Shown piece after piece: positions 1 to 4,470 of a stretch of 4,470 bases of DNA (its first letter is position 1; each line of letters starts with the position of its first letter). A program made the translations under genes and the position numbers. The DNA is taken from IMG/VR virus record IMGVR_UViG_2675903409_000005, one strand, 5' to 3'. This DNA comes from a virus (lineage: Duplodnaviria; Heunggongvirae; Uroviricota; Caudoviricetes). The notes beneath the pieces were generated by a model. It was not told the DNA's origin. It saw only the letters and a program-made list of their open reading frames with translations, and did not search any database.

Positions 1-55
1 GGGGAATATCTCCCCGGCAGCCTTCAGGGAAAAATATCATCAGATGGCTGCTTAA
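1..55 (+). CDS. Possible 3' end of an upstream gene (frame 2, stop TAA 53-55); product unknown
   Basis: Frame 2 is open from the window edge to TAA at 53-55 and uses mostly common codons. Frame 1 is also open, to TAA at 103-105, so the frame and end are uncertain. No start codon is in the window. Confidence 0.2.
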   Translation, partial: GNISPAAFREKYHQMAA

Positions 56-117
56 AAAAAGAACAAATGGTAGTGTCCGCTATTGCCAGTACACCTCAAG
101 GATAAGGCTAAAAAATC

Positions 118-1614
118 ATGACGATAAGTTTTAATACTGTTCCGTCGAATACGCTGGTGCCGTTGTTCTACGCCGAGATGAACAATTCTGCGGCAAATAC
201 AGCGGTGACCAGCGCGCCTGCATTACTGATCGGGCATGCCAGCAACGATGCAGCCATTGAGGTTAACAGCCTGGTGCTGATGCCATCGGCAGATTATGCC
301 CGCCAGATTTGTGGGGCGGGGAGCCAGCTGGCGCGTATGGTGGAAGTCTACCGTCAGACAGATCCTTTCGGTGAACTGTATGTTATTGCAGTACCGGAAG
401 CCAGAGGGGCGGCGGCGACGGTCAGGGTGACGGTTGCCGGAGAAGCAGAGGAAAGCGGCACCCTGAGTCTGTATGTCGGGCGCTCCCGTGTACAGGTGCC
501 TGTGGTGAATGGCGATGATGCCACTGCGGTTGCCACCGCGATTAAGGAAGCGGTAAACGGGGTTATCACCCTGCCGTTTACGGCGTCATCTGATGCAGGT
601 GTGGTGACGCTGACTGCCCGTCATAAGGGGCTGTATGGTAATGAGTTACCGGTCTGTCTGAATTATTATGGTTCTGGTGGTGGTGAGATTCTGCCAGCAG
701 GGCTTCGGGTGGTGACGGAAGTCGGTGCTGCCGGTAGCGGAGCGCCTGATCTTACCGCCGCTGTTGCTGCTATGGGCGATGAGGCATTCGACTTTATCGG
801 TCTGCCGTTCAACGATGCCGCCTCCATCAATATGATGATGACCGAAATGAATGACAGCAGCGGTCGCTGGAGTTATGCGCGCCAGTTATACGGGCATGGC
901 TATACCGCAAAACTGGGAACGCTGTCAGAGCTGGTTGGTGCCGGAGATATGCATAATCAGCAACATATCACGCTTGCCGGTTACGAAAAAGAAACCCAGT
1001 CGCCTGTCGATGAACTGGTTGCCAGTCGCCTTGCCCGTGAAGCGGTATTTATCCGGAATGATCCTGCCCGTCCGACACAGACGGGGGAGCTGGTGGGGAT
1101 GCTTCCGGCACCGAAAGGTAAGCGATTCATCATGACAGAGCAGCAGACCCTTTTATCTCACGGCGTGGCGACGGCTTATGTGGAAGGCGGCACGTTGCAG
1201 ATCCAGCGTTCCGTAACCACCTACAAAAAGAATGCGTATGGCGTGGCAGACAACAGCTATCTGGACAGTGAAACTCTGCATACCAGTGCATATGTTCTTC
1301 GCAAACTGAAATCGGTCATCACAAGCAAGTACGGACGTCACAAGCTGGCAAATGATGGTACCCGTTTTGGTCCGGGGCAGGCGATTGTCACTCCTGCCGT
1401 TATCAAAGGGGAACTTCTGGCGACATATCGTCAGATGGAGCGTGCCGGTATTGTGGAAAATTACGATCTGTTTAAACAGTATCTGATAGTTGAGCGTGAT
1501 GCAGATAACCCGAACCGACTGAATACGCTGTTCCCGCCGGATTATGTTAATCAGTTACGTGTCTTTGCGGTGGTTAACCAGTTCCGTCTTCAGTATTCAG
1601 AGGAGTCAGCATAA
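118..1614 (+). CDS. Contractile phage tail sheath protein (Mu gpL-like)
   Basis: 498-aa ORF, first ATG after in-frame stops at 103-105 and 109-111. AAGG at 104-107 lies 10 nt upstream of the ATG. Length and N-terminal sequence fit the ~500-aa Mu-type sheath family as I recall it. It is followed directly by tube, chaperone and tape measure genes on the same strand. Its stop overlaps the next start (TAATG at 1612-1616). Confidence 0.85.
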   Translation: MTISFNTVPSNTLVPLFYAEMNNSAANTAVTSAPALLIGHASNDAAIEVNSLVLMPSADYARQICGAGSQLARMVEVYRQTDPFGELYVIAVPEARGAAATVRVTVAGEAEESGTLSLYVGRSRVQVPVVNGDDATAVATAIKEAVNGVITLPFTASSDAGVVTLTARHKGLYGNELPVCLNYYGSGGGEILPAGLRVVTEVGAAGSGAPDLTAAVAAMGDEAFDFIGLPFNDAASINMMMTEMNDSSGRWSYARQLYGHGYTAKLGTLSELVGAGDMHNQQHITLAGYEKETQSPVDELVASRLAREAVFIRNDPARPTQTGELVGMLPAPKGKRFIMTEQQTLLSHGVATAYVEGGTLQIQRSVTTYKKNAYGVADNSYLDSETLHTSAYVLRKLKSVITSKYGRHKLANDGTRFGPGQAIVTPAVIKGELLATYRQMERAGIVENYDLFKQYLIVERDADNPNRLNTLFPPDYVNQLRVFAVVNQFRLQYSEESA

Positions 1615-1970
1615 TGGCAAAGATCGCCGGAACCTGTTTTTTTAAAGTGGATGGTCAGCAGTTATCGCTGACAGGTGGCATTGAAGTGCCGATGAACACC
1701 AATGTCCGGGATGACATCGTCGGCATGGCAGGGGATGTGGATTACAAGGAGACCTGGCGGTCACCTTACGTTAAGGGCACGTTTAAAGTGCCCAAAAACT
1801 TTCCGGTCGACAAAATTACCACCTCAGACCAGATGACGATTACCGCTGAGCTGGCAAACGGCATGGTGTATGTGCTTTCGGCGGCATGGCTGCACGGAGA
1901 GGCTAATCATAATGCCGAAGAAGGCACGGCAGATCTTGAATTCCACGGCGAAGAGGGAGGGTATCAGTAA
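1614..1970 (+). CDS. Phage tail tube protein (Mu gpM-like)
   Basis: 118-aa ORF. AGGAG at 1601-1605 lies 8 nt upstream of ATG 1614. Start overlaps the sheath stop and its own stop overlaps the next start (TAATG at 1968-1972). The small size and position directly after the sheath gene are typical of myovirus tube proteins. Confidence 0.8.
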   Translation: MAKIAGTCFFKVDGQQLSLTGGIEVPMNTNVRDDIVGMAGDVDYKETWRSPYVKGTFKVPKNFPVDKITTSDQMTITAELANGMVYVLSAAWLHGEANHNAEEGTADLEFHGEEGGYQ

Positions 1971-2305
1971 TGGCAATGAACGTTACAGAAATAGTTTTAA
2001 AAAAACCGGTGACAGCGCATAACGAAATGCTGCATGTGCTGGAGTTGCGCGAGCCCACGTATGACGAAATCGAGGCGCTGGGTTTTCCTTTCATTATTTC
2101 CGGTGAAGGCAGTATTAAACTGGACAGCCAGGTGGCACTGAAATATATCCCGTTGCTGGCGGGGATCCCGCGTTCATCGGCGGCGCAGATGGCAAAACTG
2201 GATATTTTTAAGACCAGCATGCAGATCCTGCGTTTTTTTACCCAGTCGGAGACGGGAAGCACCTCCGGAAACGACTCTACAATGTTGCCTGGTTCTGGAA
2301 ACTGA
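1970..2305 (+). CDS. Tail assembly chaperone (lambda G / Mu gp41-like), zero-frame product
   Basis: 111-aa ORF between the tube and tape measure genes. GGGAGG at 1955-1960 lies 9 nt upstream of ATG 1970. The conserved position and an overlapping -1 frame ORF reaching the tape measure start are the hallmarks of chaperone genes. Confidence 0.7.
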   Translation: MAMNVTEIVLKKPVTAHNEMLHVLELREPTYDEIEALGFPFIISGEGSIKLDSQVALKYIPLLAGIPRSSAAQMAKLDIFKTSMQILRFFTQSETGSTSGNDSTMLPGSGN

Positions 2306-2397
2306 ATCCACTGGAGCTGCGACGGGGGGCTGTTTCGCAGTTTACAGAACTGGAAGCCGAGGCCGTCCGCATTAACGAGGAGATGAAGCATGGCTGA
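1970..2397 (+). CDS. Tail assembly chaperone, candidate -1 frameshift fusion product (GT-like, about 142 aa)
   Basis: Frame 1 is open from 2212 to TGA at 2395-2397. A T-TTT-TTT heptamer sits at 2233-2239 in the zero frame (codons cgT TTT TTT). After a -1 slip, translation continues YPVGDGKHLRKRLYNVAWFWKLNPLELRRGAVSQFTELEAEAVRINEEMKHG and ends 5 nt into the tape measure ORF. Confidence 0.5.
2233..2239 (+). promoter_or_regulatory. Candidate -1 ribosomal frameshift slippery heptamer (T TTT TTT)
   Basis: Seven consecutive T in X-XXY-YYZ register relative to the chaperone zero frame. It lies inside the only interval (2212-2305) where both the zero frame and the -1 frame are open. Confidence 0.45.
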
Positions 2398-4203
2398 CAG
2401 TTTTCAGCTGAAGGCGATCATCACTGCCGTGGATAAGGTATCGGCACCGCTGAAGGGAATGCAGCGCCAGCTGAAAGGTTTTAAAAAGGAGTTTGCCAGC
2501 CTGTTACTGGGCGCAGCGGGTGCCGGAACCGCAGTACTGGGGGCGCTGGCGCTCCCNNNNNNNNNNNNNNNNNNNNNNNNNNNNNNNNNNNNNNNNNNNN
2601 NNNNNNNNNNNNNNNNNNNNNNNNNNNNNNNNNNNNNNNNNNNNNNNNNNNNNNNNNNNNNNNNNNNGCAGAAGAATCCGGTCAGATGATGGCGCAGTGG
2701 CGCACTGCCTTTAAACTGACACAGGGAGAGGTGGCAGGGCTTGCGGATAAGATTAACTATCTTGGTAATACCGGTCCTGCAAGTGCGAAAAAGATTTCTG
2801 ATGTTGTGACCCGTATTGGCCCTTTAGGCAGTGTTGCGGGTGTGGCCTCCGGAGAGATTGCCGCAATGGGGGCAACCATTGCCGGAATGGGGGTGGAGTC
2901 AGAAATTGCTGCGACGGGGATAAAGAATTTTATGTTGTCGCTGACAGCGAGGGATTCTGCCACCAAATCGCAGAAAAAAGTGCTCCGCTCGTTGCGCATT
3001 AGCCCGAAAAAACTGGCGGCGGATATGCAGAAAGACGCCCGCGGGGCCATGCTGCACGTACTGGATTCTCTGGCAAAAGTGCCGAAAGAAAAACAGGCTG
3101 CTGTGCTGAAAGCGCTGTTCGGGAAGGAATCCCTGGGGGCCATTGCGCCGCTGCTCACGAATCTGGATTTGTTGCGAACCAACTTTAATCGTGTGGCGGA
3201 TGCGCAGCAGTATGGCGGCTCAATGCAGAAAGAATATGCCGCCCGTGCCGCGACGACAGAAAATCAGTTGTTGCTGCTGCAGAACCAGATCAATGCGATT
3301 TCTTCCACGCTGGGGGAAACCTTCCTGCCTTCACTCAATGAAGGCATAAAAGAGATGAAGCCTTTTCTGGAAGAAGTGCGCACGTTTGTCAGAGAAAATC
3401 CTGAGGTCGTAAAAACCATCGCGAAAACTGGTGCGGCATTACTGACGATGGGCGTGGCGATTGGCACATTGACACGCATAACAAAAATCATGGGTAGCGT
3501 GATGAATATGACGCCGGCAAAGGGATTAATTGCGCTTCTCGTCGGTGGTGCATATCTCATAATTGATAACTGGGAAACGGTCGGTCCGGTTGTGAAAAAA
3601 GTCTGGCAGGAGGTTGATCAGGTTGTCAGAGCAATGGGGGGATGGGAACAGGCAGTAAAAACAATAGCAACGGTTTCTGCCCTGTATATTGGTGTGAAGG
3701 CGGTGGCAAGTATTCGTGCGGCAACAGTCGCCCAGAATCAATGGACAACGGCGGCAGGAAAAACAGGGCTGAAATTAAAGGGCCTCGGAAAGATCAGTCT
3801 GATTGGTGGATTGCTTGAACTGGGCATGATGGCGCAGGAGTTTGAAAAAGCACATCCCTGGCTTGTTAAAAATTTTGTGGCTGATGCACTGAACAGTGGA
3901 TTTGGTCTGAATGATAAGTTCGACGAGTGGGGCAAACAGTTCCATGATTTTGTCTATGACATGACCGGATGGCAGATGCCACGTGGTGATGGGTATTTAT
4001 CTCCCGATAAACGCTACACCCCGAATGTATCACTGGAAAGGAATCAGCTGTTAAGCCTTGCATCTTCACCGGCAACCCGCAGCGAACTTAAGGTGACGTT
4101 TGACAACGCGCCGCCTGGAATGCGCGTTATCGATTTGCCGAAAACAGGCGATCCCTTTATGAAAATCACCCATGATGTTGGGTATTCTCCATTTAAAAGG
4201 TGA
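2390..4203 (+). CDS. Phage tail tape measure protein, interrupted by the N run at 2557-2667
   Basis: GAGGAG at 2377-2382 lies 7 nt upstream of ATG 2390. The N-terminal part (MADSFQLKAIITAVDKVSAPLKGMQRQLKGF...) runs into the N run. After the N run, frame 1 is open immediately (AEESGQMMAQW...) and continues to TGA at 4201-4203. The protein is long, Ala/Gly/Lys-rich and largely helical-looking, with hydrophobic segments (GLIALLVGGAYLII, ISLIGGLLELGMM) typical of tape measure proteins. Frames before and after the N run differ by one, so the N count is not the true length or the gene carries a frameshift. The ATG at 2686 from the ORF track is probably internal. Confidence 0.8.
2557..2667. other. 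Run of 111 N (assembly gap or masked sequence)
   Basis: Directly visible in the sequence. It lies inside the tape measure coding region. Confidence 0.95.
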
Positions 4204-4270
4204 GTTCTTTTTTTGTGGTGAAAGATGAGGCAAAATTATCGCGTAACATGCTAACAATGGAGTTTGTTTT

Positions 4271-4402
4271 GTGATAAAGCCATTTTTAATGACGGTTGCA
4301 ATATTAACCTCTTGCTGTGCTCAGGCGAAAATACTAACAAATGAGGAGATTGTTTCACGATTTATTAGTAACGTTAAAACGGTGATGCTGCCAACTTACT
4401 GA
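4271..4402 (+). CDS. Hypothetical small ORF with a lipoprotein-like signal peptide, 3' end replaced by IS1 sequence
   Basis: GGAG at 4259-4262 lies 8 nt upstream of GTG 4271. Translation is (M)IKPFLMTVAILTSCCAQAKILTNEEIVSRFISNVKT, with a short hydrophobic N-terminus and a lipobox-like LTSC. From codon 37 onward the ORF reads into the IS1 terminal repeat, so the native C-terminus is unknown. It is not in the supplied ORF track. An alternative ATG at 4341 (MRRLFHDLLVTLK) is also cut by IS1. Confidence 0.2.
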   Translation: MIKPFLMTVAILTSCCAQAKILTNEEIVSRFISNVKTVMLPTY

Positions 4403-4470
4403 TTTAGTGTATGATGGTGTTTTTGAGGTGCTCCAGTGGCTTCTGTTTCTATCAGCTGTCCCTCCTGTTC
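4381..4470 (+). mobile_element. IS1 insertion sequence, left end (terminal inverted repeat and 5' region), partial at the window edge
   Basis: GGTGATGCTGCCAACTTACTGATTTAGTGTATGATGGTGTTTTTGAGGTGCTCCAGTGGCTTCTGTTTCTATCAGCTGTCCCTCCTGTTC matches the canonical IS1 left end as I recall it, including the ~23-bp terminal repeat GGTGATGCTGCCAACTTACTGAT. insA begins at element position 56, as in IS1. Confidence 0.9.
4436..4470 (+). CDS. insA: IS1 InsA (transposition regulator), 5' partial, continues beyond the window
   Basis: GTG start at 4436 with GAGG at 4425-4428 7 nt upstream. Translation (M)ASVSISCPSCS matches the InsA N-terminus, including the start of its CxxC zinc-finger motif. Confidence 0.85.
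   Translation, partial: MASVSISCPSC

Follow-up and report, generated by a model that had tools for sequence, protein, structure and literature searches.

A frame offset in a tape measure gene of a draft Shigella sonnei assembly most likely reflects a scaffold gap of wrong length

Results

A run of N interrupts the tape measure gene

The window, by which we mean the whole 4470-bp stretch of DNA analysed here, carries a run of N inside a phage tape measure gene whose reading frame changes across the run. We conclude with high confidence that these N stand for a scaffolding gap, given a wrong length, in the draft assembly of a Shigella sonnei isolate, and that the gene is one continuous open reading frame (ORF) of 649 aa belonging to a defective prophage. 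In the sequence of events that we propose, two contig pieces of a short-read S. sonnei draft would have been joined by read pairs, and the gap between them would have been filled with an estimated 111 N, 136 below the real 247. The actual tape measure gene would most likely be uninterrupted, 1950 nt long and 649 codons without its stop, and would lie in a defective phiP27-like prophage with a Mu-like tail.

The features of the window are as follows, with coordinates counted from its first base.

1..105, plus strand: 3' end of IS600 (IS3 family) at the left contig end; homology to phiP27 begins at 99
118..1614, plus strand: contractile tail sheath gene, 498 aa (PF17481, PF04984, PF17482)
1614..1970, plus strand: tail tube gene, 118 aa (PF10618)
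1970..2305, plus strand: tail assembly chaperone gene, 111 aa (PF10109)
2233..2397, plus strand: candidate programmed -1 frameshift, with the canonical slippery heptamer T TTT TTT at 2233-2239 (zero frame) and a -1 frame open to a TGA at 2395-2397
2390..2556, plus strand: 5' part of the tape measure gene, residues 1-55 and two bases of codon 56; identical in closed S. sonnei genomes; called a 56-aa partial gene in the source record
2557..2667, no strand: 111-N scaffold gap, its length very probably estimated and wrong; 247 bp in finished genomes, where it covers tape measure residues 56-138
2668..4203, plus strand: 3' part of the tape measure gene, residues 139-649 and the stop; PF10145 at E 8e-30, profile positions 54-201; WP_052972332.1, 511 aa
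4271..4402, plus strand: small ORF with a lipoprotein-like N-terminus (VIKPFLMTVAILTSCCAQ...), of which the first 36 or so codons (4271..4378) precede the point where IS1 truncates it
4379..4470, plus strand: left end of IS1, 92 bases, at the right contig end; homology to the uninterrupted E. coli locus ends at about 4380, and the IS1 InsA/DDE genes come next in closed genomes

The sole N run of the window occupies 2557-2667 and is exactly 111 N long. The ORF that enters it starts with an ATG at 2390 (2390 mod 3 = 2), crosses the run and, with the N taken as 111 real bases, ends at a TGA at 2687-2689. The long ORF downstream lies at positions equal to 1 modulo 3; it is open from 2668, the first base past the N, has its first ATG at 2686 and stops at 4201-4203. 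The initial annotation had described 111 N at 2557-2667, entry in frame 2, exit in frame 1 and a stop at 2687-2689, and we reproduced every one of these details. The offset is a deterministic reading of the sequence, to which a chance test does not apply.

The window is the entire WGS record CWUA01000221.1 (4470 bp, N included) of the draft S. sonnei assembly GCA_001252735.1. The N run is present in this draft record as deposited and was not introduced afterwards. In a look-up from protein to contig, the 511-aa protein encoded by 2668-4203 occurred on just one record, CWUA01000221.1, whose annotation at this site consists of a partial gene on each side of the gap and directly next to it (2390-2556 and 2668-4203). 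In NCBI this protein is entered as 'phage tail tape measure protein, partial [Shigella sonnei]' (WP_052972332.1). GenBank also has a 505-aa 'putative tail protein' (CSG11907.1), located on a contig of 4470 bp and called from the internal ATG at 2686, next to the 511-aa RefSeq partial protein from 2668; one and the same gap has put two truncated versions of the protein, of different length, into public databases. A mask that preserves the length of the sequence was considered as the main reading and rejected, since the deposited record has the 111 N itself and finished relatives have 247 bp.

Finished genomes hold 247 bp between the same flanks

We projected the two flanks of the run, 1-2556 and 2668-4470 (2556 + 1803 = 4359 observable bases), onto ten finished chromosomes, among them that of S. 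sonnei Ss046 (CP000038.1). Both flanks matched without mismatch in nine of the ten and with a single mismatch in the tenth, and all ten chromosomes hold one identical 247-bp sequence between them. The flanks are thus collinear with uninterrupted finished loci, at a real distance of 247 bp against 111 N. The interval is also 247 bp long in Escherichia coli FDAARGOS_944 (99.8% identity) and in phage phiP27 (96.4% identity). Among the E. coli matches listed, 25 of 25 span 786-787 bp for a query of 650-651 bases, which is 136 more. The difference of 136 between 247 and 111 equals 3 x 45 + 1, or 1 modulo 3, exactly the one-base shift observed. Because the N count is 136 short and 136 leaves a remainder of 1, the downstream part of the tape measure gene looks shifted by one frame.

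Placing the 247 bp in the gap yields a single tape measure ORF, 1950 nt long, that encodes 649 aa and has its only stop at the end, equal in length to L47 of phiP27 and to the gene in annotated E. coli genomes. The N run conceals residues 56-138, and codon 139 begins at base 2668. The exact 649-aa protein is recorded on at least 1000 contigs. In every finished relative, as in the reconstruction, the ORF is uninterrupted; the isolate's own sequence in the interval is hidden by the N. We infer that the same 247 bases are present in this isolate and that the length of the gap was estimated by the scaffolder. These results support the first alternative of the initial annotation, that the 111 N are not the true length, and its expectation that the sequence, once closed, would contain a single tape measure ORF of some 600 aa or longer; the alignment of both flanks to intact homologues that it had proposed for estimating the missing length is the comparison that returned 247 bp.

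The protein domain carried by the gene points the same way. With the Pfam gathering score of 33.2 bits as the threshold for membership, the right flank alone matches PF10145 (PhageMin_Tail) with 104.6 bits over profile positions 54-201, and the reconstructed 649-aa protein matches it with 152.8 bits over positions 2-201, at residues 88-290. The domain therefore joins the right flank at position 54 of 201, and it starts at residue 88 in the complete protein. Entry at this position implies that about 83 residues are needed between the flanks, and 111 N give just 37. Judged from the profile match, a check that is independent of close relatives, 37 codons would be too few for the missing part of PF10145 and the linker that precedes it.

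The gene lies in a contractile-tail module of a decayed prophage

The genes of the window make up a contractile-tail module. They stand in the order sheath, tube, chaperone (PF10109) and tape measure gene, which is the place of a tape measure gene; the genes for DNA circularization and the baseplate come next both in phiP27 and in finished chromosomes. A conserved programmed frameshift is a known rule for tail assembly chaperones. The T TTT TTT at 2233-2239 agrees with a chaperone frameshift, and by that rule the candidate site may function as one. The -1 frame of the chaperone overlaps the start of the tape measure gene, and the predicted fusion product has 142 aa. The candidate frameshift is unannotated in the records examined.

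Short-read contigs typically end inside IS elements. The tail module of the window is bracketed by IS600 and IS1, and the contig ends are assembly breaks induced by these repeats. The terminal sequence at 4379..4470 is recognisable as that of IS1. Scans of a genome contig collection and a metagenome contig collection for the window's IS1 junction gave no match in either. A search for the right end of IS1, made with a view to a target-site duplication, found no match at three or fewer mismatches. Beyond the window, the prophage is decayed upstream of the sheath gene in finished S. sonnei chromosomes (ten loci, 2900-6000), where an IS4-family element, a 120-aa fragment of a prohead protease (PF04586) and IS600 replace the head and neck genes of phiP27. 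The sheath gene of the E. coli FDAARGOS_944 prophage is split by ISEc60 (locus 515-3315). The tape measure gene of the window sits in an IS-riddled, defective phiP27-like prophage. The exact sheath protein occurs in 2065 blocks of public assemblies, and in 1888 of these blocks the longest contig that carries it measures only 2-5 kb; it occurs in finished chromosomes too, from which the ten used for the projection of the flanks were taken.

The small ORF truncated by IS1 matches about the first 37 residues of a 160-aa hypothetical protein whose gene, in E. coli FDAARGOS_944 (locus 6108-6590), lies 3' of the tape measure gene. This small lipoprotein-like gene is absent from phiP27 and may therefore be a moron, that is, an accessory prophage gene.

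Alternative explanations of the frame offset

The offset as recorded would also agree with a frameshifted pseudogene, the alternative named in the initial annotation. Either the N run would have its true length or it would conceal an indel, the isolate having lost 136 bp or differing by some other length not equal to 247 modulo 3. Gene decay is a known trait of S. sonnei, and selection on this gene is probably weak, since the prophage around it is decayed, with IS600 and IS1 flanking the module and IS elements in place of the head genes. Against such an indel, finished S. sonnei genomes in which the gene is intact agree with the window at 4359 of the 4359 observable bases, at least 1000 contigs carry exactly the intact protein, and the record's own annotation shows a gap here, flanked by partial genes. 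A private deletion would moreover have to fall entirely within the unassembled stretch. We found neither an indel nor a stop in real sequence, no observable base differs from the intact genes, and the apparent shift depends solely on the N count; a pseudogene is thus unsupported and highly improbable. We rate just as low the variant in which the N would conceal a rearrangement peculiar to this isolate, for instance a loss of 136 bp or a short insertion, that at once caused the assembly to break and disabled the tape measure gene of a prophage already defective. A misjoin of flanks from two different genes or from two copies of the prophage would draw on the observation that related tape measure genes are present in two copies in some E. 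coli genomes (2 places in several records). It is contradicted by the flanks themselves, which align collinearly and in one orientation, at 100% identity, with a single contiguous locus of finished genomes, and by PF10145, which continues as one domain from one flank into the other across the gap. We regard a misjoin as having almost no chance of being correct, and with it falls the initial annotation's scenario of flanks that belong to two genes.

A different question is why the assembly broke at this place. Tandem repeats occur in the tape measure genes of some phages, and breaks in this region recur, several other Shigella drafts having fragments that begin at residues 87-205; both points would suit a break at a repeat internal to the gene, as the initial annotation had supposed, or at a repeat common to another locus. 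Tandem Repeats Finder at its lowest score threshold reported no tandem repeats, however, and the longest repeats internal to the gene are imperfect and only 17-25 nt long. No 14-mer of the 247-bp interval is repeated within the 13.5-kb locus, and E. coli FDAARGOS_944, the nearest of the complete E. coli genomes, has the interval just once. The break points also differ between assemblies, where the edge of a repeat would give a fixed point. Over the gene, the 13.5-kb locus and this E. coli genome, the repeat explanation found no support, and we rate it as very unlikely.

In at least 12 other Shigella drafts, tape measure fragments start at residues 87, 89, 116, 126, 135, 142, 151, 154, 163, 166, 185 and 205, a set that is possibly biased by the way the clusters were constructed. 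The records of two drafts that bear such fragments measure 4464 and 4533 bp, about the size of the window. A break within the first third of this gene thus recurs in a small minority of assemblies; the presence of the exact full-length protein on at least 1000 contigs means that most assemblies traverse the region. We infer the cause of the break at the tape measure gene from these positions: scattered break points fit a stochastic dip in coverage better than the edge of a repeat. The interval lies within a local maximum of G+C (0.56-0.61 in 100-base windows), and this G+C-rich stretch is a weak lead.

Discussion

The closest counterpart of the reconstructed gene is the tape measure gene of S. 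sonnei Ss046 (CP000038.1, about 2888608-2890557). All observable bases of the window are identical to this locus and to other finished chromosomes, and the surrounding order is shared: IS600, sheath, tube, chaperone, tape measure gene and IS1. The sole difference between Ss046 and the window is 247 bp (CP000038.1, about 2888775-2889021) in place of the 111 N. The prophage of E. coli FDAARGOS_944 has 99.8% DNA identity to the window. The tail module of phiP27 (L44-L47, with L47, NP_543099.1, as the tape measure protein) has 96.4% DNA identity over 99-4194 of the window, and its gene order, its gene length of 1950 nt and its 247-bp interval are as in the window or the reconstruction. phiP27 is a complete Stx2e phage in which a DNA circularization gene lies directly 3' of the tape measure gene, without IS600 or IS1; the window's copy, unlike that of phiP27, is part of an IS-disrupted remnant.

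The gap itself resembles other scaffold gaps of estimated length in draft assemblies, which likewise appear as a run of N in a WGS record with partial genes on both sides and a length that is off relative to finished relatives. We see no visible difference between these and the gap of the window.

Essentially all S. sonnei genomes contain this phiP27-like prophage remnant, whose tape measure gene is well known, and nothing about the gene is new. The relevance of the finding is one of data quality alone. The frame offset is not to be taken for a pseudogene or a recoding event, and runs of N in draft scaffolds are not to be read as true lengths.
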